From positions 214,291-278,290 of the forward strand of contig JACKLD010000012.1 of the NCBI GenBank assembly GCA_024236095.1: DNA of 64,000 bases. Reading direction: 5' to 3'. Below the pieces are notes generated by a model that was given only the letters and a program-made list of their open reading frames with translations, did not search any database and was not told the DNA's origin. Positions 19,322 to 32,002 of the stretch are shown piece by piece. The stretch is from Pseudomonadaceae bacterium (GTDB lineage Bacteria; Pseudomonadota; Alphaproteobacteria; UBA2136; UBA6156). Numbering within the stretch: position 1 is the stretch's first letter; the number at the start of each line of letters is the position of its first letter. A program made the position numbers and the translations under genes.

Positions 19322-21487
19322 CTATTCAACAATTCCCTCTTCCACCGCCATCTTCGGCACCGCCATCGCCTTGCGCTCGGGCTCACCGGCGGCCACGTCG
19401 GCGCCCGCACCGCCCGCCTGCCGTGTTTCGGCAAACCATTCGGCATAAACAAGCTGCAATTCAGCCATGGTGGAGCCTGCCCACCACGCCAACTTGTAAA
19501 GCCCCGGCGCCATCTGGTACACGCCATGGCGCAGCTTCAGGTTGTCCAGCGCTTGCTCGCGCACCTCCCACACCGCGTCATACAGGCCGCTGGCCATGTT
19601 CTCCAAATCGTCAAATTCGTCGACGTTGCGCCACACTTCCTGCGCCGACAGGCGCGGCGTCTCTTCGCCCACATCGCCCACATAAGGCAGCGGCGCCAGC
19701 AACACCAAGTCTTCGGCCGGAAGCTCCGGCAAAAGGTAGCGGGCAATGTACGGATAATTCTCCAGCACGTCCTCGCTTGGCTCACGCAGCACCTCCTTGG
19801 CTCCCAGCCAGGGCATGTCGGCGGACGGCGGCAACGCGGCGGCGTAGTTCTCCACCGAAAGGTACGGCTGGACAATCGGGCACACCCGCCCCTCGTCCTC
19901 GGCCGGGCACACCCCGTGCTCACGGTTGCGCGGGTGCAGCTCGGGGAACCAGAAGGTATCGATTTCAAATTCAAACTCCGGCGGCAGCGGGTGATACCCC
20001 ACATCGGCCATCACCGCATTGCCTTCAATCTTGGCCACCGCACTGATGGGCAAACGCTGCCCCGCCAGCCGCCGCTCCAGCGCATCGAAGGTAATCACGT
20101 CAAAACCCTTGCGCGGCACGATCGGGTAAAAACGCCCTTTCATTTTCTCGGGCACCGGCGCCAGCCAGCGGTTTTCATCCATGGGGTGACGCATCGCCTC
20201 GTAAATATGCTGCCAGCTTTCATAAAAGTAGTGCAGCGGGTCCCACAATGGGCCGAACAACTGTAAAAAGCGGCCGGTGGTCAAATCCCAGCCCCACAAC
20301 GCGGGGTTTTCAAAGTGCTCGGGGTGGGTGGGCAACCATGTGCTGCCCCATGCCGCCACGGTGCGGCTGTGCGGCAGGTTCAGGTTGGGGATAAGCGGCA
20401 GCGGATCGGCCACGTTGGGGCTGATATAGCCGCTCCCGTCGCTCACCGCCACACGGGCGGGCACAATCTTGCGGGCGGTAATGTAGCCGGGCGCCAGCAC
20501 CTCCAAAATCGTCCCCACCGGCGCCTTGTCGGCCCGTTCTTCCGCCACCTCGTGCAGCCCGCGCACCACCCGGCCCGGCCAGTAGTCTTCCAGCTCGAAC
20601 TCACGGCTCACCACCTGCATGCCGTTGCAGGCTTCAAAGGTCGGTATCAGCGTGCAGCCCTTGGCGAACAGGCCGTCCACCCATTCTTCGCCGCCCTGAG
20701 CCTCCAGCCAGTCTTCATAATCCGTCCCTTCAGGACGCACCGCCCATGCCGCCAACAAGGCGTCTCCGGCCGCGGCAGCATCCGCTTCGGCCACGCCGTC
20801 CTGCTTGGCAAACAGCATCTGCACCTGCGGCAGCTTCCAGCCGTCAATGTAAAAGGTATCGGGACGGTATTTGTAAGGGTACAAGTTCGGTGCATCATAC
20901 ACTGCCTGCACCGCCACATCGTCCGGCGCCCCGCTGGGCTGGCCCACCGGCCCGCGCCCCATGTCGAGGTTGCGGAACTTCAGCAAAAACACCTGTTCCA
21001 GCAACTCGGCTCCTTCCATGCGCCCGTCCACCTCGCGGCAATGGCGCGGGAACACCGCCAACGGCAGCCACGGCTTGGCGGGCCGCCCTTCGTCATCCAT
21101 GGCGGCGGCGTTGTAGGCGTCCCATTCCAGCGCGGTCTTGGCCTCCGGCCCGAGGCCGATATACACCGTCCGCCCCGCCAAATCCCGCACAAACAAGGGA
21201 GATAACGGCACTTCGGTATCCACCTCCATCAACGTCAAAATGTTCTCGTCGGTGGCCACGTTGTGCCCGTGCACACAGCCGCGCGGGTCACTCTGCCATG
21301 CCTCGCTCACCCGCTTGGGGCCTTCGGTGCCGTCAAACGGGTCGATGTCAAACAACGCACTGCCACCATCCCACAGATACGGATGCAGCCCCATGCCAAT
21401 CTCATGCCGCCCATACCGTGCCACCATGCGCTTGGTTGGCACCTTGCCCTTTTGCCCCCATGCGTTTTTGTAGTTCAGAACGTCCAT
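19322..21487 (-). CDS. Large hypothetical protein (721 aa), no recognisable domain
   Basis: Clean ATG start with coding-like codon usage. No signal peptide and no motif I can assign. Adjacent to the giant membrane protein gene. Confidence 0.6.
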   Translation of the reverse strand: MDVLNYKNAWGQKGKVPTKRMVARYGRHEIGMGLHPYLWDGGSALFDIDPFDGTEGPKRVSEAWQSDPRGCVHGHNVATDENILTLMEVDTEVPLSPLFVRDLAGRTVYIGLGPEAKTALEWDAYNAAAMDDEGRPAKPWLPLAVFPRHCREVDGRMEGAELLEQVFLLKFRNLDMGRGPVGQPSGAPDDVAVQAVYDAPNLYPYKYRPDTFYIDGWKLPQVQMLFAKQDGVAEADAAAAGDALLAAWAVRPEGTDYEDWLEAQGGEEWVDGLFAKGCTLIPTFEACNGMQVVSREFELEDYWPGRVVRGLHEVAEERADKAPVGTILEVLAPGYITARKIVPARVAVSDGSGYISPNVADPLPLIPNLNLPHSRTVAAWGSTWLPTHPEHFENPALWGWDLTTGRFLQLFGPLWDPLHYFYESWQHIYEAMRHPMDENRWLAPVPEKMKGRFYPIVPRKGFDVITFDALERRLAGQRLPISAVAKIEGNAVMADVGYHPLPPEFEFEIDTFWFPELHPRNREHGVCPAEDEGRVCPIVQPYLSVENYAAALPPSADMPWLGAKEVLREPSEDVLENYPYIARYLLPELPAEDLVLLAPLPYVGDVGEETPRLSAQEVWRNVDEFDDLENMASGLYDAVWEVREQALDNLKLRHGVYQMAPGLYKLAWWAGSTMAELQLVYAEWFAETRQAGGAGADVAAGEPERKAMAVPKMAVEEGIVE

Positions 21488-21514
21488 ATTCTTCTTCTTT
21501 TTGTGGTTAAGTCA

Positions 21515-24500
21515 CTAGCTTATATTGAATCCTCGGCTGGCGAAAATCTTGTTGGCAATACCCTGCTTCACGCTGTCATCAACCTTGTCGTCCAGCATCT
21601 GGATGATCAACTGCACATGCTGGTTGTAGTTCCCTACGCTCATCAGGGCGGCCTGCTCGTGGGTGGTCAGGTCATCCACCATGTCGGTAATTTGGTCCAA
21701 CACATTGATGCCAACCCCGGCACTGGCCAACAGGTTGCGCAAGCTGGCCTCGACGGCAGGACGGTTTTTGTCAAACATCGCCGCACGCTTGTAAGCATTC
21801 TGCGCCTGAACCTTGATCTGCTTCCGCGTCTTCTGCACATGCGGCATGGAATACTTGGCGTTGATGCTCTGTTGCAGCACACTGTTGATGCCTTCCTCAA
21901 ACGCCGCTTCATGGATCACGTTCAACGGGCTGTGCTTCTTGTAATCCTTCAAAATCACCTTGGCGTTGTTACGAACATCCACCGGCAAACTGGTATCGGC
22001 CAACTGCGCCTGCAGCTCGGCCTTGTAGTCCACATCAGCCTGACGCAACTGCAGGAACATGTCGGCCACCCCGCGCATTTGGTAGAACTGCCGTTTGCCG
22101 CTCAACATCTTGTTGAGCGCGCCAACCTTGTAATCGTCACCCAAGTCTTCGCGCATGAACTTGGTCACCGCATAGGCGTCATTCCGCGTCCGCGCCGCCG
22201 TGCCGTAGCTCTTGCGGGCGTCTTTTTCCACCAAGTAATAGTGGTCGCCAAACGCCCCTTCAAAGGTGCCGCCCACTTCCTTGGTGGCCTTGCTGCCGGC
22301 CAGCTCGCGCATCACGGCGGGAGTCAGCTTCACTTCGCCACCCGCCACCTTCATGGTGCCGTTTTGCACGGTGATCGCCATTTGGCGGTTGTTCATGTAC
22401 TGCTGCATCGCCTGCATCATGGTGGCGCCGCGCAGCTCTTCGGCACTGAAGAACGCCTTGCTGCCCTCGCGCCCGGTGGCCTGCTGCAAGGCCTTGTAGC
22501 CATCGGCGTTTTTCGCCGCCGCTTCGCTGGCCGCCTGCCGTGCGGCGTTCATCATGCCCCTGAAGGCATCCTGCCCCATCGCCATGTTGCCGAAGTACTG
22601 GTCACCCTTGGCAATCTCGCCGATTTCCTTCTCGTAGAAGCCCAAGCGCTGGCCTGCCGCCTTTCGTTCTTTCCATTTCTTGAAGCCACCCGCTTCCTGC
22701 CATGCACGGGCGCGTTCAGGGCCTTCCTTACCCTCGTTCAACACTTCCTTGATGACATTGAAGCCCGGAATGCTCCCCGCCGCCCCGCTGGCGGTAATCG
22801 AACCATAAAAGCCCGACGCCGCCGTCATCCAATACCCCGGCAAACTGGGCTTGTAATCGTTTTTCTTGATACGCTCACCCAGTTCTTTATGACGCTTGCG
22901 CATGTCTTCCAGACGAACATCGTCGATACTTTTCGCGGCTGTCTCTTCCAACATGTCTCCGGTGGCTTTCCACACGGCTTTCGAAGACGCCTCGATATCC
23001 TTGGCCTTGGGCTGGCCACCATCCACGATCTTGTCGTAAATGGTTTTTGCCTCCTTGGTGTTGTCTTTCCCGTCCGCAACCACGCCGCCTGCTGCCTTCA
23101 CATCTCCGGCCGTGGCTTCTTCCATTTGCCCTTGCTGCACCGCTGCCTGCTGTGCGGTGGCGCTTGTTACCGCATCGCCATCCTGTCCCGGCGCCTGCTG
23201 TCCCAAGCTGCCGACATTCAAAGTCTGCACATCCATCTGGCCGACACTTCCGGCGCCACCGCCACCTCCCTGTGGGCCGCTTCCCGGAGATATGGGTCCC
23301 TTGGGAGTATTCGGGCCGCCATCACCATCATCACCATCGTCATCAGTTCTGGGTTTCCTCAAACGATCGAACGCCTCGTTTTCCCGCTCGGCCTGTGTTT
23401 GCATATCAAACATCCGGTTTGCTTCTTCAGCTTCCGTCTGCAAATCGTACATGGCATTGGCATCTTCCGCCTCCGCCATAATGCTGTCGGCATTGGCTTC
23501 AAAGTCACTTTGGGCTTGGTCAAGACGCGCATTTTCAGCTTCAGCTTCGTTTTGAAGATCAAACATATCGTTTGCAGCATAGGCCATATCTTCTTCTGCA
23601 GCCCTCATCTGCTTCTCAAGGGCATCCCTTTCCTCCATATCCCGCTCACGTTGCGCCTCAGTATCTTGCTTGCCGAGCTTACGCCGATTCCACGCACTCA
23701 ATCCCGCCCCGCCCACACCTGCCCCAACCGCCGACGCGATGGTAATAGCGGCTTTTTTCCCTGCATCGGCAATTTTCTCCGCAGCCCCATCAATCTCGGT
23801 AAGCTTCTGGATATTCTGCGCATCGCCGATCTTGAAAATCAGGAACATGGTCATCCCCACCAGCGACGAGTAAATTCCCGCAATCCCGAACAGGAACACG
23901 CCTTGGCGGAAGTTGCTGTCGATAGGCCCCTGTCCGGTGAGCGAGATGGCTTTGTAAATCACATCGCCCAACCGGTCGACCAGCAAGAATGTCACCGGCA
24001 CAACCTTCAACACCCCCACAATCAGGATGCTCTGGATAAGAAGCCCGGCAGCATGGTTGGGCATGGCAATCCCGAACAGGAAGGCAATCGGCGTGATCAT
24101 GATCACCATCAGCAACACCATATCGACAATGACACGCATAATTTCGATAATCGCCATGGCCACAATCCCGGCAAAAATAGACGCAAGGCCCGTCAACATC
24201 TTCCCGATGGCTGCAATAAAGCTACCAATTGCCCCTTTACCCCAAAAGCCGGTATCTTCCGTCAAGACTTTGACTTCGTTCAAACCAAGAGCATCAACCC
24301 CCTTGGCCATTTCTTCGTTTTGGAGCTGCTTGGCGGTATTTCTCAAAACAATCGCGTAAATCGACTCCGCCAAGAAACGTCGTTTTTCAATGTCGCTGGT
24401 TTTGGCGTCCAAATTTTCCTTGAAGAACTTGCCGTTGAAGTAGGTGATGAAGTTGTTGATGGATTCTGCCGATACCTGCCCCCCCTGCAGCATCGATGCA

Positions 24501-25933
24501 TCCCAAAGTTGCGGAATAGGCTTGCTGCCGTTTACGTACTCGCGCAAGGCCGAAGGAACATTCCACCCCAAAAACATCCCTTCATAAACCTGATTGGCAC
24601 TGGCTTGGCTGCACCTGCTTGATTGCAGGTCGTACTTGGTATCTTGGGCAAATGTCGCATCAGTGATACGCCCCGGAATAACCATGGATGGGGCTGGCAT
24701 CGACCCAAGAACCGTTGCAGGGCTCGACGCCATTCTCAGAATTCCTGCCAACGAAGTCCGCCCTTCCGCATCAACATCAGACTTTGGATCCTCAAATGCC
24801 TGCTGAACTTTCGATTGTGCCCGTGGAAGCGTGGCTTTCAACAACCCCTTGAAAGATGAACTGGTTCCCGAGCTGCCCAGGTCCGACTGTGTCACCAAGT
24901 AATATAATAGCGAATCTGGGCGCGCATGCACGCGCGCAAGCGTCGCCTGCCCCTTTAAGTCCTTAATCAGTTTTGCGTAACTGATGCACGTATCGCAGTT
25001 ACCCACTCCCGTAACAGGAGATCCATTAGACTTTATTGCCATGTTACGGATTTCCAGCAAGCCCTGCTTATACATCTCTGGCTTGTTCGGAATCGACTCT
25101 TCGTCCTCGTATAACATCAACATAGGCGGGACAAACACCGAAAGGTCTTGCGCATTCGTTTTCGCGTAAAAATCTTTAATATTTGCAATAAATGCGGGCA
25201 AGCTGTCAGGGGCAACCAGTGCATCCACCCCTGTAGCCGCAGGAGATGTTGTTGCACCCGCTGTCGCTGTTGTAGCAGGCGCCGTTGCCGCAGCAGCAGG
25301 CTGCAAATCCTTGGGGAGAGGCGGAATGCCACATTGCGCAAAATCTTTGGCCAGATTGTACCAGTTTCTACCGGCTGAAATAGACGGACTCGACATCAAA
25401 AACCGCTCAGCCTCCGCAGCCGCAATCAGCCCCTGATACCCCTGCGACCTGAACAAGTCGGCAAAAATCACTTCCAGCGTGGTGCCCACGTGGGCGGCCA
25501 CCAACTGCGGGGTAAAGCCCATGACTTCTGGGACAGATTGCGTGGCACCGGGAGTTGCCGCCACCATACCGGGAGATATCGGCTTGTTGATCTTGTAAAA
25601 TAACAACTGGCTGTTATAAGGCGCAAACAAACAGATGATGGTCACCAGCAACCACGCCGCAATGGTCTTGAAGTTGTGCAGCGCCTTGTTGAAGACGATC
25701 GCCAGCGCCCCCACCAGCGCCGAGGCCAGCGCCACGTAGTACAGTGCGGGCACTGCGCCACCGTTGTAGCCCTTGAACAGGAACCATTGAAAAGTAAACC
25801 CGGTCAGCAGACTGTCCATCTGCGCCTTGGTCATGCTCAAAAACGGAAACGTCGTATCCGGCGTAAAACTCTGCGCAAACGCCCCGCCACTGGCGAAAAC
25901 AAACGCCAACGCGAAAAGCGCCAACAGGCGCAT
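21515..25933 (-). CDS. Giant secreted/polytopic membrane protein (about 1470 aa), VirB6/TraG_N-like topology with coiled-coil tandem repeats and an Asp/Gly-rich linker
   Basis: Signal peptide MRLLALFALAFVFASGGAFAQ, then 2 TM helices, a soluble segment of about 450 aa, a cluster of 4-5 TM helices (aa about 640-790), then 22-aa coiled-coil repeats (DMFDLQNEAEAENARLD...). These are followed by a DDDGDDGDGGPNTPKGP...GGGGGAG linker and a C-terminal domain of about 600 aa. Lower GC than the flanks. Confidence 0.65.
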   Translation of the reverse strand: MRLLALFALAFVFASGGAFAQSFTPDTTFPFLSMTKAQMDSLLTGFTFQWFLFKGYNGGAVPALYYVALASALVGALAIVFNKALHNFKTIAAWLLVTIICLFAPYNSQLLFYKINKPISPGMVAATPGATQSVPEVMGFTPQLVAAHVGTTLEVIFADLFRSQGYQGLIAAAEAERFLMSSPSISAGRNWYNLAKDFAQCGIPPLPKDLQPAAAATAPATTATAGATTSPAATGVDALVAPDSLPAFIANIKDFYAKTNAQDLSVFVPPMLMLYEDEESIPNKPEMYKQGLLEIRNMAIKSNGSPVTGVGNCDTCISYAKLIKDLKGQATLARVHARPDSLLYYLVTQSDLGSSGTSSSFKGLLKATLPRAQSKVQQAFEDPKSDVDAEGRTSLAGILRMASSPATVLGSMPAPSMVIPGRITDATFAQDTKYDLQSSRCSQASANQVYEGMFLGWNVPSALREYVNGSKPIPQLWDASMLQGGQVSAESINNFITYFNGKFFKENLDAKTSDIEKRRFLAESIYAIVLRNTAKQLQNEEMAKGVDALGLNEVKVLTEDTGFWGKGAIGSFIAAIGKMLTGLASIFAGIVAMAIIEIMRVIVDMVLLMVIMITPIAFLFGIAMPNHAAGLLIQSILIVGVLKVVPVTFLLVDRLGDVIYKAISLTGQGPIDSNFRQGVFLFGIAGIYSSLVGMTMFLIFKIGDAQNIQKLTEIDGAAEKIADAGKKAAITIASAVGAGVGGAGLSAWNRRKLGKQDTEAQRERDMEERDALEKQMRAAEEDMAYAANDMFDLQNEAEAENARLDQAQSDFEANADSIMAEAEDANAMYDLQTEAEEANRMFDMQTQAERENEAFDRLRKPRTDDDGDDGDGGPNTPKGPISPGSGPQGGGGGAGSVGQMDVQTLNVGSLGQQAPGQDGDAVTSATAQQAAVQQGQMEEATAGDVKAAGGVVADGKDNTKEAKTIYDKIVDGGQPKAKDIEASSKAVWKATGDMLEETAAKSIDDVRLEDMRKRHKELGERIKKNDYKPSLPGYWMTAASGFYGSITASGAAGSIPGFNVIKEVLNEGKEGPERARAWQEAGGFKKWKERKAAGQRLGFYEKEIGEIAKGDQYFGNMAMGQDAFRGMMNAARQAASEAAAKNADGYKALQQATGREGSKAFFSAEELRGATMMQAMQQYMNNRQMAITVQNGTMKVAGGEVKLTPAVMRELAGSKATKEVGGTFEGAFGDHYYLVEKDARKSYGTAARTRNDAYAVTKFMREDLGDDYKVGALNKMLSGKRQFYQMRGVADMFLQLRQADVDYKAELQAQLADTSLPVDVRNNAKVILKDYKKHSPLNVIHEAAFEEGINSVLQQSINAKYSMPHVQKTRKQIKVQAQNAYKRAAMFDKNRPAVEASLRNLLASAGVGINVLDQITDMVDDLTTHEQAALMSVGNYNQHVQLIIQMLDDKVDDSVKQGIANKIFASRGFNIS

Positions 25934-26140
25934 GTCACCAAAGCGGCGCGGGCACGTCATAGGTACATTGTGGGGATGCTTCCGCCCGTCTTCAAGGGAT
26001 ACAAAGGTATACCTGCCCATCTCTGTGGCGTTTTGGCCCCGACCTCTGCCCGATGCAATGCCCATGAGAACACGGAGACCACCATACGCCATCACCACGC
26101 CCGCAGGGCCTCATTGCGAGCGCCGTGCGGCAATCTCCCC

Positions 26141-26319
26141 TCCCGTTCATCAACTTTGGAAACTCATTCAAAAACTGGCGGAACGGGAGGGATTGCCGTC
26201 GCTCCGCTCGGCGGCCTGCGGCTCGAGCCCATGCCCGTAGGTCGTATCGAGAGTTCTCACCCTCCCGTTCATCAACTTTGGAAACTCATTCAAAAACTGG
26301 CGGACGGGAGGGATTCGAA
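26141..26319. repeat. Two tandem copies of a 58-bp hairpin unit, each ending in a copy of the tRNA-Ser 3' end (att-site direct repeats)
   Basis: CCCTCCCGTTCATCAACTTTGGAAACTCATTCAAAAACTGGCGGA(A)CGGGAGGGATT appears at 26141-26198 and 26259-26319. TGGCGGAACGGGAGGGATTCGAA equals the 3' end of tRNA-Ser at 31909-31931. Confidence 0.65.
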
Positions 26320-26483: not shown

Positions 26484-26942
26484 TCAACTTGACGTGCATG
26501 CAGATACAGCTCTGCTGTATACCCTAACCGATTCAATTGTATTATTTTCAACAAAATCCCAGAAATCTTCGCTAAACTTTAATCTAGGGTTGAAGGCGAT
26601 TGAAAAACCACTTGAAGCTAACTTTTTCAAATTTAAAGCTTCTGCAAACCACTCTAGTACATTGAGAGGGTTTGAATGCACGCTGGGCTTCTGTGCCACA
26701 AATACTAAATGTCCACCATCACGGTAAAACTCATCAGATAAAACAATAAAACACTCCAAAAACGGCCAATCATCAAAAGTTGAAGGAATACCACCGGGAG
26801 TAGTGATTAAATCTTTCTTCCGGTGACACGCAATTCTTGAAAAAGCATATTTTTCATCATCAAGTAGCCCATTATTAATATAGGCAAATTTTGTATTCTT
26901 AGAATTTGTAAATTCAAAACTTTCGGAAAAAAATATTCTTAA
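26484..26942 (-). pseudogene. Decayed gene remnant (no ATG; frame open to 26942) in a very AT-rich stretch
   Basis: The ORF-track M at 26757-26759 is a TTG. The frame continues upstream with ...KYAFSRIACHRKKDLITTPGGIPSTFDDWPFLECF... and no ATG. Confidence 0.3.
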
Positions 26943-27259
26943 TTATCTCACTTCTAGATGTTTTTTGTTCTAACGGTAACGATGCTTGAGCATCCTCAAT
27001 AAGTGAAAACGCATAAACACCAAAACGGATTTTTCCCTCACTCATTCGAGTTACCTCTCCATTGATTTCTTAGAAACTTCATCCACCACTTTCACATCTG
27101 AAAACCAGAAGTTTTAACTCTCCTCGCACAACAAGTTATTAAGTTAATTCAACGGGTAGATTATATAATAAAATTCAAATCGTAAGTCAAACTTTACAAT
27201 ACTACAGTGCCGCTGTAATCTTCTTGTGTTAAGGCTTATTTTGTTGTATACGAAACGGC

Positions 27260-28291
27260 ATGATAAATAATGTAAAGTCTGCCGTTTGTGACCCAAAGCC
27301 AATAATTACCTTGGGTGTTCCGGCGCGTAATGAGGCTCAAAATCTCCCACGGTTGGTATCCTCCCTTCTACATAATCAACAAATTGTTCAGGATCGATAT
27401 CATTTACAAACACTTATTTGCATAAATGGCTCAACTGACAAGAGCGAAGAAGTCGCCTGTAGTTTGGGGGGTGACCCACGTTATCAGGATTTAAACATTA
27501 GTGTGTTATCATCTGATGCCGGGAAAATGGCTGCACAACAAGAAATCTGCCGCCAACGGCAGGGTGAGTGGGTTGTTTTCGCCGACGCTGATACTGAATT
27601 GGATCAAAACTGCCTAAATGGCTTGTTGATCGATGCGGAGCAACATCCGGAGGCACAGGTAGTATATGCTGATACTATTCCACAATGGTCTGGAAAATTA
27701 AGTTTGTTTGACTGGATGCTCAGCGTTCACTATCAGCAACCTGATGTTTTAACGCATCGTCACTACTTCCAAGGGCGTAGCTTTTTGATTAAATGCCCCG
27801 ATGTTTTTCTCTCCACGATGCGGAAAGGTGAGGGTTTGGAAAAGGCCTATCCTCGATTTTTAAACCTTCAAGCAGGGCCACAAATTGACGATGTGTACTT
27901 GTCACGTTTGATTTTCGACAAGTACGGCGCTGGATCAATGTTAAAATCCCCTTCGGCAAGGTTGAACTATGTTCCGCCCCGCAGCATGGCAGATTACTAC
28001 CGAGGCATGAAACGCCTGCTTATTGAGATTCATCGGCTGGATATTTTGTATCCTGAACATGCTCACTTACAGCGAGATTATTTCCAGCGCCGGACAATTC
28101 TTAAACGTTGGGCTGGATTGACGGCCTCAACCCAGTTGCGTCATATGGGTTACAAGAGCTTTGACCATGTGGTGAGGGGTATTGTTAAAATGCAGATTGC
28201 AAAAGGGTATTTGTTCCCAAATTCAGAAACAGAGCTTTGGCCGGAGACGAGGACAACCAAGTCCTTTGAGCAGGAGGATAAGGAAGTATAA
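27260..28291 (+). CDS. Glycosyltransferase family 2 (GT-A fold)
   Basis: ITLGVPARNEAQNLPRLVSSL N-terminus and a DAD (DxD) motif in VVFADADTELD. Soluble, low GC. Confidence 0.7.
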   Translation: MINNVKSAVCDPKPIITLGVPARNEAQNLPRLVSSLLHNQQIVQDRYHLQTLICINGSTDKSEEVACSLGGDPRYQDLNISVLSSDAGKMAAQQEICRQRQGEWVVFADADTELDQNCLNGLLIDAEQHPEAQVVYADTIPQWSGKLSLFDWMLSVHYQQPDVLTHRHYFQGRSFLIKCPDVFLSTMRKGEGLEKAYPRFLNLQAGPQIDDVYLSRLIFDKYGAGSMLKSPSARLNYVPPRSMADYYRGMKRLLIEIHRLDILYPEHAHLQRDYFQRRTILKRWAGLTASTQLRHMGYKSFDHVVRGIVKMQIAKGYLFPNSETELWPETRTTKSFEQEDKEV

Positions 28292-28893
28292 TGAACGATT
28301 ATTCAAAGCTTAATTTGGGGTGTGGACAGAGGCCGAATAACAAGTTCCCTCGGCCATGGTTGAATGTCGACCGAGAGGGGGCGGTGGCTGATATAACATG
28401 GGATATTGCTGACCTGCCGCAAGCATGGAACGCCACTTTTGATGAGGTTCGTGTTTCCCACGTTTTAGAGCATTTCTTTTTGGCTGAGGTACCGAATGTT
28501 CTTGCTGGGTGGTTACGGGTTTTGAAACCGAATGGAGTGTTGAGGGTTATTGTACCAGACTTGGATATTATTCTAAAAAATCTTCAGGATGGGATTGATG
28601 CAAAAGGGCGTACAGCCCTGTCTACCACCGAAACCACTCCTGTACTCGCCCAAATATACGGGATTGGTTATGATCAGGCTTCTACGGGGACACACTGGCG
28701 GCACCGGATGATTTACAATGAGGCCATGTTACGTTCTATCCTTCTACAAACGGGTCAGCTCACCAATATCACGAGATATTCTAAGGTTGATGATCCTGCC
28801 TATGGTTTTGGAATAGTGGATGATTCTCAAAATATCTTTTCACTTGGCATGAAAGCCGATAAAGTAACAACGCATGAAATGATGGGGGTTTAG
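28291..28893 (+). CDS. Class I SAM-dependent methyltransferase
   Basis: LNLGCGQRP motif I and VSHVLEHF, with a Methyltransf_11/23-like layout. The ATG overlaps the upstream stop (TAATGA). Confidence 0.7.
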   Translation: MNDYSKLNLGCGQRPNNKFPRPWLNVDREGAVADITWDIADLPQAWNATFDEVRVSHVLEHFFLAEVPNVLAGWLRVLKPNGVLRVIVPDLDIILKNLQDGIDAKGRTALSTTETTPVLAQIYGIGYDQASTGTHWRHRMIYNEAMLRSILLQTGQLTNITRYSKVDDPAYGFGIVDDSQNIFSLGMKADKVTTHEMMGV

Positions 28894-29991
28894 ATGCCTA
28901 TTTTAACAGATGAACGCCAGAAGTATTTTGCTGATTATGGCGGTATTGCCTTGGGTTTAAATATTGCACAGGAGTCGGCAAACACCGTTCCCATGTTATT
29001 TACCCCGCCTCATCAATGTGTGGCGAAAGACGACATAGCAGCTGGAAATGTGGCGCTTGCTATGTTTCGGGGTAAGAAAGTTGTTTTAAAGGCGTCAACG
29101 GGTGATCGTGACTTTACCGAACATGCCAAACGCGGGGTTGGTACCTCTCGTAACCGTAAATCTTTGTTGGTTGATGTTGGAACTACTTGGGAGGCTGATG
29201 TTCTTCCACAGTTTGTAAATGAGTCGGGTGATGTACGCTCTATTGTTTTGCAAGAATTTGTAGCTTTGCCTGATAATGCCTACGCGATTGTACATGCAAA
29301 GGCCGATGAAATGCTGATTGAATTTACTGTGGATGGGGATCGCTTCTTACTTTTTGTTAATCATAGGAATGGGGCAACCTCCCTTGAAACAAGTCGTCAT
29401 GATGGGGATATGACCTCACTACATGGCCGAATTGACGTAAACCATTTTGCGGCGATGATGCGGGATATGTACAAGGTTGTAGGGTTTGATTTCAATATTG
29501 AATGTTTTATGAATCGTAGCTTAGTTTCAATCATTCAACTTCGCCCCGTGCCTCAAGATATACCCCACGATCCTTTAATCACGGCCAAGATTGCCCAACG
29601 TCTAGTATTGCCAACACAGCCCCCTTTGCATCATACGCGTTTTGTGTGTGGGCTGGTGGATAGCTATGGTGTTATCCAAACAAATGTAGAAGCGGCTCAT
29701 AATGTTGGGCAACCTGATACCATGTTGGTACTGCGAGATACCCCTGACTTGCCTTGGGAATATCCTTTTTTTGCCCAACGGGCAGCTTCCAGCCTAAGAA
29801 CAGTTTTTGTGGATGTTCACAGTGCTTCGACTTTATCTCATGATCCGACGGATTTACCTATGGACTTGGGTGTTCGAGAACATTACCGGCGTTTTGCCGC
29901 CCCACGTTTTCAAACAACCGAACTTGTTGGCCGAAATGTTGAAATCCTTATGGACGGGCACGAGGGAGTCATGGATGATCATGGCCGGTAA
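28894..29991 (+). CDS. Hypothetical protein (365 aa), unknown function
   Basis: Starts 1 nt after the MTase stop. No motif I can assign. Co-operonic with GT2, MTase and Nudix. Confidence 0.55.
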   Translation: MPILTDERQKYFADYGGIALGLNIAQESANTVPMLFTPPHQCVAKDDIAAGNVALAMFRGKKVVLKASTGDRDFTEHAKRGVGTSRNRKSLLVDVGTTWEADVLPQFVNESGDVRSIVLQEFVALPDNAYAIVHAKADEMLIEFTVDGDRFLLFVNHRNGATSLETSRHDGDMTSLHGRIDVNHFAAMMRDMYKVVGFDFNIECFMNRSLVSIIQLRPVPQDIPHDPLITAKIAQRLVLPTQPPLHHTRFVCGLVDSYGVIQTNVEAAHNVGQPDTMLVLRDTPDLPWEYPFFAQRAASSLRTVFVDVHSASTLSHDPTDLPMDLGVREHYRRFAAPRFQTTELVGRNVEILMDGHEGVMDDHGR

Positions 29992-30529
29992 ATCAAAATC
30001 AACGAAGATGAGAAAACGTATGACACAAGATCGTAACCGTACCGTGATGATTAAGGGTAAGCAGGTCAATTTCGTCTTTTTGGGTTCGGAGGCTAAAATT
30101 CCCTTTGATAAGGTGACAAGCGTATCAGTCATTCCTTTTACGAAGGTTGGGGATGTTGTGGCGGTGCGTAACCCACGCGGGATTGATATTCCTGGAGGGC
30201 ATGTGCAACAGGGTGAAACCTCCATTGAGCAAGTGGCTCACCGTGAAGTGGGTGAGGAAGCCTACGCCAAAATGGATTCGGTTGAAGTTGTTGATGTTAT
30301 TCAATCTGACTACTATGGTTCAGCACCCGACCAGCTTACTTACATGGTTATCATGATGGGGGAAGTAAGTGAATTAATGCCGTTTGAGGTTAATGATGAA
30401 ACCACAGAGCGTCAGATTATGCCCACACAAGATTTCCTTACCGCCTATTCGGGTGGAGATCGAGGTGATATGGAGGCCCTTTTAAAGGCTGCGATTGAGA
30501 AACGTGCTATGGGGATGGGGGGACGTTAA
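29975..30529 (+). CDS. NUDIX hydrolase
   Basis: Nudix box GGHVQQGETSIEQVAHREVGEEAYA. The start overlaps the upstream gene by 17 nt. Confidence 0.75.
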   Translation: MIMAGKSKSTKMRKRMTQDRNRTVMIKGKQVNFVFLGSEAKIPFDKVTSVSVIPFTKVGDVVAVRNPRGIDIPGGHVQQGETSIEQVAHREVGEEAYAKMDSVEVVDVIQSDYYGSAPDQLTYMVIMMGEVSELMPFEVNDETTERQIMPTQDFLTAYSGGDRGDMEALLKAAIEKRAMGMGGR

Positions 30530-30645
30530 CCCCAAACCCACCACCCCACCCCCAGCCCGAGGGCGAAGCCGTACAGCACCATAAACACATACACGATCAC
30601 CATTTCAGGCCGTCCGGGTGGGGGAATATGGGGTTCGGGAATCAT
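30526..30645 (-). CDS. Putative 39-aa hydrophobic peptide (single TM)
   Basis: MIPEPHIPPPGRPEMVIVYVFMVLYGFALGLGVGWWVWG. GGAGG lies 6 nt upstream of its ATG, which sits 2 nt after the stop of the upstream ORF, and its stop overlaps the Nudix stop by 4 nt. Could be spurious. Confidence 0.25.
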   Translation of the reverse strand: MIPEPHIPPPGRPEMVIVYVFMVLYGFALGLGVGWWVWG

Positions 30646-30646
30646 C

Positions 30647-31015
30647 CTACTTGCCTCCCTTTTTGGCTTCGGCCTTCAACTGTTCGTCCAGAGGGGTGAA
30701 TAACAAGCCGCACTTCTTGGCGATGCTGGCTTGTTCGATAGCCTCATATTCTCCCTTCAACTGGCGATACTCTGCCGCCTCGGGGCCATCTCCGCCTTCC
30801 AGAAAGAACAACGCTGGCCAGAACAACACCAACCCCACGCCCATCTGCCATGAGTCCGAACTGGCTTCGCTTTTGAGTTGTTGGTAAAGCTTGCTTGTCC
30901 GGCGGGTGATCCGGGTTTGCTCCATGCCAAGCTGCTGGCAGTCGTACTGCTGATACATCAATGGCGACACATCCGCCGCGATCATCTTGTCGGGATTGCT
31001 CGCACAAGCGGCCAA
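30647..31015 (-). CDS. Hypothetical protein with one hydrophobic segment
   Basis: 122-aa ORF between the island cargo and the integrase fragment. No recognisable domain. Confidence 0.35.
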   Translation of the reverse strand: MAACASNPDKMIAADVSPLMYQQYDCQQLGMEQTRITRRTSKLYQQLKSEASSDSWQMGVGLVLFWPALFFLEGGDGPEAAEYRQLKGEYEAIEQASIAKKCGLLFTPLDEQLKAEAKKGGK

Positions 31016-31023
31016 AAGACCCG

Positions 31024-31743
31024 CTATGGCGATTGTGAGGGGTTGGGGGTATGGGCATACAGCCGAGCCTCATTCCGTTCCAGCTTCCGCAAGAAGTCAG
31101 GCAATGCGCTGGCATCAAACGCCGCATAATGCCCTTTTGAGTAAGGTTTCAGGGCATCCCGATTCATGAACGTGGCAACCGGGTTGTGCTGCACCAATCC
31201 TTCCACAATGGCATACCGGAACACCTGCCCGCACATTTGCTTGAGCCGCCGGGCCACCTCATGGGCTTTCCGCTCTTCCACTTTCCTAATAGCCCCGATG
31301 ATATCCTGAACCGTCACATCCTTAATGGGCATGGCCCCAAACGCCGGGAAGATATCCCGCTCCAGTCGCCGCAGGTTGTAGCTGCCATGATTTTCCGTCC
31401 AGCCAGACACATTCTTGGCGTGCCATGCTCGAGCCACCACCTCAAACGTGGTTTCGCTTTCCAGTTTGGCTCGCGCTTTGTCTTTTCGTTTCTCAAGGGC
31501 CGGATCAACCTCCTGCGCTTTCATCTTCCGGGCGGCCATGGCCTTCTCCCGGGCCTCGGCCAACGTCACCAGCGGGTAACTGCCAAGGGCAAGTTTCTTT
31601 TCTTTCCCAAGATAGTAGTACTTCAGCTTCCAATGTTTGCCCCCGGCAGGAGACACCAACAGATACAACCCGTCAAAATCGGCCAGTTTATAAGGCTTTT
31701 CCTTGGGTTTCGCGGCTTGAATGGCCTTGTCGGTGAGGGGCAT
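31024..31743 (-). pseudogene. int: Truncated P4-type phage integrase (N-terminal DUF4102/SAM-like region only, 239 of about 400 aa)
   Basis: MPLTDKAIQAAKPKEKPYKLADFDGLYLLVSPAGGKHWKLKYY... is the standard P4-integrase N-terminus. The ORF ends before the catalytic R..HxxR..Y domain. It lies adjacent to the tRNA-Ser 3' end. Confidence 0.7.

Positions 31744-31908: not shown

Positions 31909-32002
<94 letters not shown>

Follow-up and report, generated by a model that had tools for sequence, protein, structure and literature searches.

Introduction

The closest described relatives of the locus reported here are found among the dikinase-type phosphotransferases, whose mechanism and domain logic have been set out in earlier work (PMC4844700, PMC12167813). 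These enzymes are recognised by a PPDK_N-type ATP-grasp domain, by conserved metal- and phosphate-binding residues in the ATP site, by a swivel phosphohistidine fold with a conserved His, for which the canonical signature is T/SxxGGxxxH (PMC12167813), and by a third, acceptor-binding domain, which in PEPS, PPDK, RPH and HpeH is a TIM barrel, a RIF-binding or an HpeH-like domain. Two-component dikinases are also known (HpeHI, CreHI and the phenylphosphate synthase PpsAB), and in HpeHI the ATP-grasp domain is found alone, as HpeI. The Nudix hydrolases MutT, NUDT15 and NUDX1 offer a second point of comparison, with a standard box that reads G-x5-E-x7-R-E-U-x-E-E-x-G-U, and the glycoside synthase/phosphatase pairs (GpgS/GpgP, MpgS/MpgP, trehalose-6-P or sucrose-6-P synthase/phosphatase), which use a HAD or histidine phosphatase, a third. 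The Gtr modules (GtrA/GtrB/GtrC) are borne on mobile elements at tRNA genes and combine a GT2 that has C-terminal TM helices (GtrB) with the GtrA flippase and a GT-C in one unit. The MeOPN capsule-modification genes of Campylobacter (Cj1415-Cj1422) include a PPDK-like L-glutamine kinase, Cj1418, which is a full three-domain enzyme; in this pathway, a PEP-utilising-type kinase working via a pyrophosphoryl-His acts with methyltransferases and transferases to provide a methylated phosphate-containing group on sugars; a cytidylyltransferase, a P-loop kinase and an amidohydrolase also take part, but no Nudix hydrolase does.

An intact operon in a decayed tRNA-Ser islet

The region at 27260-30529 of the window, by which we mean the whole 64,000-nucleotide stretch of DNA that was analysed, holds four genes that form an intact operon, acquired horizontally, and that are one instance of a recurrent cassette. 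The operon and the islet that carries it comprise the following features:

26138-26316, no strand: left islet scars, two exact 45-nt direct repeats 122 nt apart (repeat search)
26484-27050, minus strand: frameshifted pseudogene, ~187 aa, between the scar and the operon (three-frame translation)
27260-28291, plus strand: GT2 gene, 343 aa, soluble family-2 glycosyltransferase (GT-A fold)
28291-28893, plus strand: class I SAM-dependent methyltransferase (MTase) gene, small, 200 aa
28894-29991, plus strand: AGH1 gene (365-aa protein), PPDK_N-type ATP-grasp and swivel-phosphohistidine-like domain
29839-29841, plus strand: His316 codon CAT, candidate phospho(pyrophospho)-carrier histidine
29975-30529, plus strand: MutT/NUDT15-like Nudix hydrolase gene, 184 aa from ATG 29975
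30647-31015, minus strand: lipoprotein-like ORF, starting at its own lipobox (LLAAC) and abutting the integrase fragment
31024-31743, minus strand: truncated P4-type integrase, 239 aa (PF13356 4.5e-25, PF22022 4.1e-32)
31909-32002, minus strand: tRNA-Ser(GCU), integration target and right islet boundary (ARAGORN)

Read directly from the sequence, the four ORFs are intact on the plus strand, each abutting or overlapping its neighbour, at the positions given by the first-pass annotation. The tight coupling that it had described is seen at two junctions, namely a 1-nt overlap (TA[A]TG) between the GT2 and MTase genes, and a TAG immediately followed by ATG where the MTase gene abuts the 365-aa gene; the 17-nt overlap between the 365-aa and Nudix genes exists only if the latter starts at ATG 29975. 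This codon is preceded by GAGGGAG, other in-frame starts lie at 29981, 30008 and 30020, and in a 96%-identical Nudix homologue the gene call begins at the ATG that corresponds to 30020, so that coupling at this last junction is probable, albeit uncertain. The GC content of the operon is 42-46%, against ~60% in its surroundings. A second copy (locus L012) has a DNA identity of 91-92%, and the dN/dS between the two copies, 0.09 for the 365-aa gene and 0.03 for the Nudix gene, demonstrates strong purifying selection. The deviant GC, these ratios and the recurrence of the set elsewhere show that the gene arrangement is not due to chance.

The proposal that an islet with a tRNA gene and an integrase carries the operon as cargo was confirmed. 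The integrase fragment lies by the tRNA-Ser gene, and each of the 45-nt repeats at the far end terminates in a copy of the tRNA-Ser 3' end (26163-26194 and 26285-26316), which is the organisation of a tRNA-targeting P4-type island. The islet itself is decayed: its integrase and lipoprotein genes are truncated, and a further gene is frameshifted. The integrase fragment comprises the arm-binding and central domains only, and its catalytic domain (PF00589) was not found, hence the islet is probably immobile. The lipoprotein-like ORF, since it starts at its lipobox, is apparently truncated at the 5' end; it has no Pfam or NCBIfam match, and its L012 homologue is 139 aa long. The ~187-aa pseudogene has no Pfam match. 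As regards the GtrA/GT-C pair reported elsewhere in the window, the GtrA gene is real (1745-2128), but the neighbouring 570-aa ORF has no Pfam match, and GtrA is located 25 kb from the operon, beyond the islet, with no demonstrated link to it.

The 365-aa protein is a compact dikinase-type protein

The 365-aa protein, whose family we name AGH1, is a compact member of the PEP-synthase/PPDK/rifampin-phosphotransferase superfamily. It had been considered unassignable, which is accurate at the level of sequence searches in Pfam, NCBIfam, PADLOC and the PDB, where no match was obtained, but not at the level of structure and profile, where AF2, Foldseek and profile comparison recognise an ATP-grasp and a swivel-like domain. 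In the AF2 model (pLDDT 92.9), residues 1 to ~235 form a PPDK_N-type ATP-grasp domain and residues ~240 to 365 a swivel-phosphohistidine-like domain. The best Foldseek matches in the PDB are ATP-grasp enzymes (E 2e-6 to 7e-5), and the AGH1 family profile matches PDB RPH with an E of 1e-5. E203, Q215 and R217, which align with the DIEW...IVQSRPI motif of RPH (E-x11-Q-x-R) and are invariant across 46 sequences, are presumably the counterparts of PPDK E323, Q335 and R337. Across the 57 family members, S68, E143, E203, Q215 and R217 are invariant and H316 is near-invariant; the metal- and phosphate-binding residues of the ATP site are conserved.

His316 is invariant in alignments A2 and A5 and at least 90% conserved in A1, and by DSSP it lies in the loop that follows strand 303-307, within the swivel-like domain, which has the swivel phosphohistidine fold with a conserved His. 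The family motif around it is (L)Dxxx(G)(F)xLSHxPxxLP, and VHSASTLSH in the window protein. In contrast to the dikinases, the swivel signature is degenerate, being only partly kept in AGH1, and the His domain has no sequence-level match: a profile of the C-terminal domain found no swivel in the PDB by sequence, and an hhalign comparison with the verified E. coli EI swivel fell short of significance (prob 0.1%). On fold and topology only, we infer that His316 would be equivalent to the catalytic His of EI and PPDK.

The two domains fill all 365 residues, and AGH1, unlike PEPS, PPDK, RPH and HpeH, lacks a third, acceptor-binding domain; fusions add only a NUDIX domain to it. Whereas HpeI is an ATP-grasp protein alone, AGH1 holds ATP-grasp and His domains together and has its partner separate, and this partner or fusion domain is, in contrast to the dikinases, a Nudix hydrolase.

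The Nudix hydrolase and its association with AGH1

The fourth protein has a Nudix domain (PF00293, 2.5e-11, 44 bits versus a cutoff of 21), and its box, G75-HVQQG-E81-TSIEQVAH-R90-E91-V-G-E94-E95-A-Y-A, keeps the catalytic REx2EE of the standard motif, with a spacer of x8 and a Tyr in place of the last Gly. The x8 spacing occurs throughout the subfamily aligned in A3, in which G74, G75, H76, R90, E91, E94 and E95 are invariant, and x7 is seen in some cassette homologues. By profile, the nearest PDB relatives are NUDT15, plant NUDX1 (6e-7) and MutT, with NUDT15 and MutT matching as well as or better than NUDX1. The protein resembles all three in its Pfam NUDIX domain and its RE..EE catalytic glutamates, but departs from them in its G-x5-E-x8-RE box with the terminal Gly replaced and in a distinctive N-terminal DRxRT...KVTSV extension. 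Part of its subfamily is dedicated or fused to the ATP-grasp/His protein, whereas the Nostoc and Frankia members stand alone.

Collinear fusions, in which a full-length homologue of the 365-aa protein is followed by a Nudix domain, account for 4 of the 46 family members; the linker is ~8 aa long in P0009 and P0012, where the fused Nudix begins at the DRxRT motif, and ~40 aa in P0018. AGH1 and Nudix are encoded by adjacent genes in L012 and L029. The window Nudix shares 42-49% identity with Nudix domains that are either fused to AGH1 proteins or encoded next to them. As judged from this gene architecture, fusion and adjacency establish a link between the ATP-grasp/His protein and the Nudix hydrolase; the AGH1 family members of three other loci (L006, L007 and L010) have no Nudix or GT nearby.

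The glycosyltransferase and the methyltransferase

The assignments of the remaining two enzymes, like that of the Nudix hydrolase, were corroborated by Pfam. The GT2 matches PF00535 (6e-15) and has the features of an inverting GT-A enzyme, namely the GT-A domain, a DXD motif (D109-A-D111) and a downstream acidic base, the likely catalytic base being D210/D211 within a conserved GPQIDDV(Y/F)LSR motif. Its description as soluble holds, since no TM-like segment was detected (maximum KD19 = 0.57), as in all four proteins (maximum KD19 ≤1.21). It possesses a strongly amphipathic helix at residues ~243-260, and its structure model is of low confidence (pLDDT 66). The MTase scores 25.9 bits against PF08241 (cutoff 21.2), in a match that covers the C-terminal half of the profile only. 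It is a class I SAM MTase, with a Rossmann-like fold and a Gly-rich motif I (LNLGCG, residues 7-12), of which G10 and G12 are invariant in alignment A8; SHVLEHF, LRVIVPD and a family-specific insertion, ETTPVLAQIYGIGY...W(R)HR, are its further motifs.

Serotype conversion of the Gtr type finds no support in these data. Like the Gtr modules, the operon brings a GT2 to a tRNA gene by way of a mobile element, but the window GT2, in contrast to GtrB, has no C-terminal TM helices, the conserved set includes neither a flippase nor a GT-C, and the MTase, the ATP-grasp/His protein and the Nudix hydrolase have no counterparts in Gtr modules.

The cassette recurs in distant lineages

The prediction that the genes would co-occur outside this genome was borne out, with the qualification that the third gene elsewhere belongs to a sister family. 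The order GT2, MTase, ATP-grasp/His protein, Nudix is found in CPR bacteria, in a DPANN archaeon and in metagenomes, and there the third protein exceeds the Pfam threshold for PPDK_N; its family is homologous to that of the window protein (hhalign prob 88%, E 3e-6). In Woesearchaeota (L084), GT2 and MTase are followed by a single protein made of PPDK_N, a C-terminal domain and NUDIX, while Saccharibacteria (L086) carry a Nudix, a PPDK_N protein and an MTase-GT2 fusion; PPDK_N scored 38 and 61 bits, versus a cutoff of 27. The complete set is present in unchanged order in four loci (L096, L097, L100 and L103). The four-part set thus occurs, gene fusions included, in at least four divergent lineages, and it is seen in genome fragments from reduced organisms of the CPR and DPANN groups. 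In one locus (L104), the arrangement is GT2-MTase-Nudix, the ATP-grasp protein being missing, and in two others (L099 and L101) MTase and Nudix adjoin with no ATP-grasp between them, on contigs that end before any GT2, from which it follows that part of the function does not require the ATP-grasp protein. As a control for specificity, loci with nothing but distant relatives of the MTase were considered (L107-L187, 12 viral contigs among them), and these showed no partner families.

The window GT2 and MTase are orthologous to those of the CPR/DPANN cassette (29-36% and 50-60% identity, respectively), the range for the MTase including the metagenome orthologues and the Woesearchaeota one (51%). 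The ATP-grasp and Nudix pair belongs to the type seen in polysaccharide-like clusters (Nudix identity 42-49% versus 26-34%). A module swap may therefore have joined a GT2 and MTase of CPR/DPANN cassette type to an ATP-grasp and Nudix of polysaccharide-like-cluster type. Other gene contexts of the AGH1 family point to sugar chemistry, with genes for GT4, a PgaB/NodB-like deacetylase, a FemAB-like acyltransferase, a B12 radical SAM protein, an aminotransferase and a transketolase-like protein. On the 524-kb CPR contig (L097), a Pfam-confirmed undecaprenyl-diphosphate synthase (uppS) gene lies downstream of the cassette, and an IF-2-like gene, judged by eye only, upstream.

Discussion

The notion of an undescribed multi-enzyme system stands: no characterised cluster matching the cassette was found, and a literature search returned no published description of the cassette or of the ATP-grasp/His-Nudix architecture. 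The identity of the four parts is solid, and their folds, like the conservation of the set across very distant lineages, are established. We propose that the cassette is a recurrent, undescribed system of two coupled modules, one made of GT2 and MTase and the other of the dikinase-like protein and the Nudix hydrolase. The best reading is a self-contained cytoplasmic pathway acting on a small phosphorylated or nucleotide-linked substrate, and for this explanation as a whole we consider the case evenly balanced.

The chemistry of the cassette is inferred, and the specifics that follow are, taken jointly, tentative. By analogy with PEPS, PPDK and RPH, the ATP-grasp site would load His316 with the beta and gamma phosphates of ATP, with release of AMP, and the swivel domain would hand phosphate or pyrophosphate to a small acceptor on the partner Nudix domain, which may occupy the place of the PPDK acceptor domain. 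The phosphorylated intermediate could then be glycosylated by the GT2 and methylated by the MTase, and its (pyro)phosphate or nucleotide linkage cut by the Nudix hydrolase, such that glycosylation and methylation would be flanked by ATP-driven, His-mediated (pyro)phosphoryl transfer on one side and Nudix cleavage on the other; which acceptor is used, and in what order the steps run, is conjecture. If this is true, the cassette would make a methylated glycoside or a sugar-nucleotide-like compound in the cytoplasm by way of a phosphorylated intermediate. The glycoside synthase/phosphatase pairs are analogous in logic only; their phosphatases are replaced here by a Nudix hydrolase as the phosphate remover, and the cassette adds an ATP-grasp/His phosphotransferase and an MTase. 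The likeness to the MeOPN genes is one of description, a lead and no match.

It could alternatively be supposed that the cassette decorates a lipid carrier or surface glycan, in a broad sense of serotype conversion. In this case, polyprenol or polyprenyl diphosphate would be turned into polyprenyl phosphate by the ATP-grasp/His protein and the Nudix hydrolase. The GT2, at the membrane surface, would then form a polyprenyl-phosphate sugar for methylation by the MTase, and the product would feed a periplasmic GT-C, for instance one beside the window's GtrA. The hints are weak and indirect: the amphipathic helix 243-260 would suit a GT2 at the membrane, although this protein is poorly modelled; plant NUDX1, an enzyme that hydrolyses prenyl diphosphates, is among the matches of the Nudix profile, but the nucleotide enzymes NUDT15 and MutT match at least equally well; and uppS adjoins the cassette, but in one locus only. 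AGH1 members within polysaccharide-like clusters and the presence of GtrA are also consistent with it, whereas the lack of a TM segment in all four proteins, and of a flippase, GT-C or transporter in the conserved set, argues against it. We therefore regard this role as unlikely.

Somewhat more doubtful is a modification of nucleotides or nucleic acids, in which Nudix and ATP-grasp/His proteins would interconvert NTP and NMP, for example as a one-step NMP pyrophosphokinase, and GT2 and MTase would decorate a nucleotide that either stays free or is destined for DNA or RNA, as a building block or as a cap. In chemical terms, the PPDK-type attack of His on P-beta of ATP equals the hydrolysis of NTP by MutT-type enzymes, which favours this proposal, as do the proximity of the Nudix subfamily to NUDT15 and MutT (and weakly to YtkD/RppH) and the occurrence of a dTMP-kinase-like gene and a second Nudix in two AGH1 clusters. 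The cassette, however, has no nucleic-acid-binding domain, polymerase, base-modifying enzyme or restriction-like partner; no cassette came to light when IMG/VR was scanned with the MTase profile, phage and plasmid collections contain no copy of the 365-aa protein, and action on nucleotides or DNA would be outside the norm for a GT2.

In our favoured reading, the cassette is not an immune system. Anti-phage defence had been put forward for it as island cargo, and its foreign-GC tRNA-Ser/integrase islet would be a suitable setting; GT4 genes near some AGH1 members and GT2 relatives also match Pfam 'GT4-conflict', but these matches overlap generic GT4 models. No PADLOC-DB v2 model rose beyond noise (best matches PDC-S07, E 0.0039, 14.9 bits, and AbiLii, 0.05; nothing for the MTase or the 365-aa protein), and the set has no sensor, nuclease, toxin or abortive-infection-type component. 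The virus, phage and plasmid searches above, the gene neighbours of the cassette on the 524-kb CPR contig and its occurrence in reduced CPR and DPANN organisms speak against defence as well, leaving this role without support and highly improbable. Finally, the idea of a decaying, non-functional remnant, or of a fortuitous juxtaposition in a degraded island, to which the visible decay of the islet might lead, is hardly conceivable, being already contradicted by four intact and coupled ORFs, by the low dN/dS relative to the 92%-identical copy and by the recurrence of the set, with fusions, in divergent lineages.

The four-gene operon and its islet

The four plus-strand genes proposed in the first-pass annotation were borne out by ORF calls on the window:

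27260-28291, +, GT2, 343 aa (Pfam PF00535, 6e-15)
28291-28893, +, class I methyltransferase (MTase), 200 aa (Pfam PF08241, above threshold)
28894-29991, +, 365-aa protein, no domain-model match
ending at 30529, +, Nudix hydrolase (Pfam PF00293, 2.5e-11)

Read off the sequence, the GT2 and MTase genes overlap by 1 nt (GTA-TA[A]TG), and the MTase gene abuts that of the 365-aa protein (TAG/ATG). The 17-nt overlap of the latter with the Nudix gene is conditional on a Nudix start at the ATG at 29975, which is preceded by GAGGGAG; other in-frame starts lie at 29981, 30008 and 30020, and a 96%-identical homologue has its start annotated at the codon that corresponds to 30020. No TM-like segment was found in any of the four proteins, and promoter and terminator scans returned sites no more numerous than in shuffled sequence. 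The GT2 retains an intact DXD together with the acidic base, and its model, with a pLDDT of only 66.5, is nearest in fold to HAS, PcManGT and BcsA, with MpgS/GpgS and DPMS/GtrB/ArnC more distant. Used as single queries, the GT2 and MTase sequences found no match in a PDB sequence search.

The operon sits in a GC trough (42-46% against ~60% around it), with the following features:

26138-26316, two exact 45-nt direct repeats, 122 nt apart, left of the operon, each terminating in a copy of the tRNA-Ser(GCU) 3' end
26484-27050, -, frameshifted pseudogene of ~187 aa between the island scar and the operon, no Pfam family
30647-31015, -, lipoprotein-like ORF that begins at its own lipobox and abuts the truncated integrase
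31024-31743, P4-type integrase that keeps its arm-binding and central domains only
31909-32002, tRNA-Ser(GCU), at the right edge of the GC trough

The segment 26138-26316 is a 122-nt tandem duplication holding both tRNA 3'-end copies, and its repeats look like stacked att scars left by successive integrations at tRNA-Ser(GCU). An inverted repeat (CCCTCCCGTTC...GGAACGGGAGGG) lies inside each 45-nt repeat. Within this decayed islet, the four-gene operon has stayed intact. In another metagenome (L012), a further copy of the window version is 91-92% identical at the DNA level, and this identity falls from ~92% to ~70% about 35 nt past the Nudix stop, at a C-rich tract (CCCCAAACCCACCACCCCACCCCCAGCCC). 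The identity drop and the abutment of the lipoprotein-like ORF on the integrase look like recombination junctions on the two sides of 30530-31030.

The 365-aa protein as a predicted ATP-grasp enzyme with a swivel-like domain

The 365-aa protein had no match in Pfam, NCBIfam, PADLOC or PDB sequence searches, a word-indexed homology search retrieved only the protein itself, and tblastn against phages and plasmids gave no match. An exhaustive HMMER search recovered 57 cluster representatives with identities of 22-32%, most of them covering the full length; they define the family named here AGH1. Its alignment contains five invariant residues (S68, E143, E203, Q215 and R217) and a further near-invariant set (G21, R80, G81, Q120, H316, P322 and R328), and in the comparison of the family profile with RPH from the PDB the motif N.E.F....QLRP is aligned to DIEW....VQSRP. 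With this alignment as input, AlphaFold2 produced a model with a pLDDT of 92.9 and a pTM of 0.92, whose best Foldseek matches in the PDB are ATP-grasp enzymes (E 2e-6 to 7e-5). The ~100 C-terminal residues match the phosphohistidine swivel domains of EI-Ntr (7.5) and EI (6.7) as well as the phosphoryl-carrier domain of PPDK (6.8; 104/128 residues). On the basis of these fold matches, the protein consists of an ATP-grasp domain (1 to ~235) followed by a swivel-like domain (~240 to 365).

DSSP of the model places His316 in the loop after strand 303-307, which we take, from the topology of EI, to be the loop bearing the catalytic His in EI and PPDK; we infer that His316 may be equivalent to that His at the residue level. 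A profile of the C-terminal domain found no swivel domain in the PDB, and hhalign of this domain against the E. coli EI swivel (a sequence identical to 3eza) was not significant, so the swivel assignment is kept at the level of fold only. The published swivel signature, T/SxxGGxxxH (PMC12167813), survives only in part, the family motif being DxxxGFxLSH and that of the window protein VHSASTLSH. The third, acceptor-binding domain is absent from the 365-aa protein, and the AGH1 family differs in this respect from PEPS, PPDK, RPH and HpeH, all of which have one. Since the swivel sequence signature and the acceptor domain both fail, the protein is filed as a new architectural variant and not as a member of a described family; by structure it belongs, remotely, to the PEP-utilising dikinase superfamily, and it would work in the same manner. 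A family of 57 cluster representatives that is blank in current domain libraries, where the window protein matches neither a Pfam nor an NCBIfam model, is thereby given an identity and a testable candidate catalytic residue, His316.

Some AGH1 members (P0026, P0029; L094:449-2011) have Trp where every other member has Gly (GG->WW, RG->RW), and translation of L094:449-2011 with table 11 differs from the stored protein. Probably, the source organisms read UGA as Gly (code 25), and the database entries wrongly show Trp at these codons.

Recurrence of the four-part set in CPR and DPANN lineages

The contexts of loci L001-L004 had first suggested that the set does not co-occur elsewhere, which was overturned by a phmmer pass of the window GT2 and MTase over all fetched loci. 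This picked out two MAG contigs. In the Woesearchaeota contig (L084), a GT2 is followed by an MTase (L084:1209-1808, 51-52% identical to that at 28291-28893 in the window) and then by a 595-aa protein comprising PPDK_N, a C-terminal domain and NUDIX; in the Saccharibacteria contig (L086), a Nudix, a 398-aa PPDK_N protein and a 662-aa MTase–GT2 fusion are adjacent. The PPDK_N domains of L084 and L086 score 38 and 61 bits, respectively, against a Pfam threshold of 27. A metagenome scan with the MTase alignment as probe yielded 11 orthologous loci at 50-60% identity, and HMM mapping identified the complete collinear order GT2–MTase–ATP-grasp–Nudix in L096, L097, L098 (the same sequence as L084), L100 and L103. 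The ATP-grasp protein and the Nudix form one protein in L084/L098, L100 and L103 and are separate in L096 and L097; the sets in L105, L106, L102 and L012 are cut by contig ends. The order GT2–MTase–Nudix without the ATP-grasp/His protein is found in L104 (5025-7060), and in L099 (273-1323) and L101 (86-1191) the MTase leads directly to the Nudix, also without it, the contig stopping before any GT2. As all three loci run from MTase to Nudix, the ATP-grasp component is dispensable in some lineages. In the control loci L107-L187, which hold distant MTase relatives only and include 12 viral contigs, no partner family was found in any. The genes flanking the cassette are uppS and an IF-2-like gene (the latter by eye only) in the 524-kb contig L097, an NDP-sugar epimerase in L096, and SPASM radical SAM genes with a GDPD gene in L104; given this variation from locus to locus, the cassette looks self-contained. 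The co-occurrence of the four parts strengthens the earlier proposal of an undescribed glycan or nucleotide-modification system. The literature searched contained no description of an ATP-grasp/dikinase–Nudix or PPDK_N + NUDIX pairing, nor of the cassette, and a search on GT4-conflict returned nothing relevant.

The ATP-grasp proteins of these cassettes, designated AGH2, align with AGH1 over 214 columns covering the whole grasp domain (hhalign probability 88%, E 3e-6). Their C-terminal domain carries an invariant His (R..DHLQY), and a terminal S(D/N)G motif is common to both groups. From these comparisons, AGH2 is a sister family of AGH1. The window GT2 and MTase are 29-36% and 50-60% identical to those of the CPR/DPANN cassette, of which they are orthologues, and the window ATP-grasp and Nudix pair is of the AGH1 type, the Nudix being 42-49% identical to AGH1-cluster Nudix proteins versus 26-34% to those of the CPR cassettes. 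A single four-part architecture that employs paralogous versions of the second pair argues that GT2 with MTase and ATP-grasp/His protein with Nudix are functional modules belonging together. Among the window, CPR, DPANN and metagenome copies, conservation of the MTase far exceeds that of the other three proteins, and its 50-60% identity between the window island and the other copies suggests transfer of the cassette between domains of life. The compact four-enzyme cassette is kept in CPR and DPANN lineages, and if this retention reflects function, its product may play a part in the physiology or the surface chemistry of these organisms.

Outside the cassette, the closest GT2 relatives in the database (33-35% identity) are at L001:9237-12228, L002:1316-4307 and L003:7776-10788, where they converge on a GT4 and a UbiE-like MTase. 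A tyrosine integrase and an HTH_17 excisionase-like gene adjoin this group in L001 and L002. These three loci represent another mobile GT/MTase module.

Partnership with the Nudix and other AGH1 contexts

A NUDIX domain is carried by 4 of the 46 AGH1 family members, as collinear fusions of a full-length homologue of the 365-aa protein, a linker (~8 residues in P0009 and P0012, ~40 in P0018) and a Nudix with an intact box. The motif DRxRT opens the fused Nudix in P0009 and P0012, as it does the window Nudix; the latter shares 49% identity with the Nudix of the L005 fusion. Unfused neighbouring pairs occur in L012 and L029, and the partnership of ATP-grasp/His protein and Nudix is obligatory-looking. 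The Nudix subfamily has the box G-x5-E-x8-RE..EE throughout. Most of its members have no ATP-grasp protein beside them (Nostoc, Frankia and alphaproteobacterial MAGs provide examples), so that only part of the subfamily shows the link. A Nudix-based genome scan recovered mostly Nostoc, Frankia and Patescibacteria loci, with a solitary Nudix in unrelated lineage-specific contexts; as such loci dominate, the subfamily as a whole was rejected as a marker of the system.

Around the ATP-grasp/His–Nudix fusion there is a second kind of recurrent cluster, at L005:6001-11941, L016:1663-7492 and L093:2911-10299. Besides one or two B12-binding radical SAM enzymes, each encodes a PgaB/NodB-like deacetylase and a FemAB-like acyltransferase (PF13480). 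A GT4 is the extra gene in L005 and L016; the extras in L093 are a CobQ/AAA_26-like ATPase, an ABC exporter and a dTMP-kinase-like gene. Elsewhere the contexts comprise GNAT, AGH1, Nudix and GT4 (L029), an aminotransferase, an AA-kinase-like gene, a second Nudix and an MTase (L094), or a transketolase-like gene, a radical-SAM-like gene and a membrane protein (L007). The thread common to these contexts is sugar and glycan tailoring chemistry. NCBIfam gave sub-threshold matches only for the neighbours of AGH1 members. Phosphonate chemistry, considered for the B12 radical SAM genes, was rejected, the 'P-methyltransferase' similarity being weak.

Proposed mechanism and alternatives

In the PEPS/PPDK/RPH superfamily, the His attacks the P-beta of ATP to give pyrophosphoryl-His and AMP, the gamma-phosphate is lost, and the swivel domain then brings the phosphate to a distant acceptor site (PMC4844700, PMC12167813). 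The Nudix is the best candidate for the second site of His316, as in the fusions it lies C-terminal to the His domain, in the position of the PPDK acceptor domain. We favour a route through a phosphorylated intermediate, in which a kinase step would come first, the GT2 would add a sugar to the phosphorylated intermediate, the MTase would methylate after glycosylation, and Nudix cleavage would be the last step. The specifics of this scheme are tentative. It would also explain the cassettes without the ATP-grasp protein, provided that the phosphorylated acceptor is a common metabolite in those lineages.

A polyprenyl-phosphate or surface-glycan route can be set beside the sugar-tailoring contexts of AGH1, and beside the serotype conversion raised in the first-pass annotation, for which no Gtr-type components were found and the hints are weak and indirect; we consider such a route rather unlikely. 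Modification of a nucleotide or nucleic acid, a pyrophosphate shuttle included, may be considered alongside the nearest solved relatives of the Nudix subfamily (NUDT15, plant NUDX1 and MutT), and it is unlikely. It can be speculated, with equally little confidence, that ATP-grasp, His and Nudix domains constitute a phosphotransfer machine of a new type and, with GT2 and MTase, an unrecognised pathway moved across domains of life. The Nudix would stand in place of the PPDK-type acceptor domain. With ATP bound in the grasp site and a ligand that is either nucleoside-monophosphate-like or an X-phosphate bound by the Nudix, the swivel His would ferry pyrophosphate (or phosphate) between the two, in effect through Nudix chemistry with His instead of water as nucleophile (X-P + ATP <-> X-PPP + AMP). 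The product would be a methylated, glycosylated (pyro)phospho-compound of a pathway present in CPR bacteria and DPANN archaea and transferred into a proteobacterial island. The defence role also raised earlier received no support, the MTase-profile scan of viral contigs finding only distant generic MTases without partners, and it is improbable. That the operon is a non-functional remnant, with dN/dS between the window and L012 at 0.09 for the 365-aa gene and 0.03 for the Nudix gene, is highly improbable.

Swivelling-domain phosphotransfer enzymes have so far been placed in central metabolism, antibiotic resistance and aromatic catabolism. A dikinase architecture that lacks an acceptor domain and is tied genetically to a Nudix hydrolase would widen this repertoire. 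As all four proteins are small and soluble, the system is directly testable in vitro.

Other features of the window

At 36-2128, where a GtrA/GT-C pair had been annotated, GtrA is confirmed (1745-2128, PF04138, 2e-21), and the upstream 570-aa ORF taken for the GT-C has no Pfam match. Farther left of the islet come the ordinary core genes dnaE and pgk. On the minus strand, directly to the left of the att-like scars (19322-26098), are ORFs of 721 and 1527 aa; neither has a match in Pfam, nor the longer one in NCBIfam. The 1527-aa ORF contains TM-like stretches and long Ala/Gln/Glu-rich repeats, and may be cargo of an older island.
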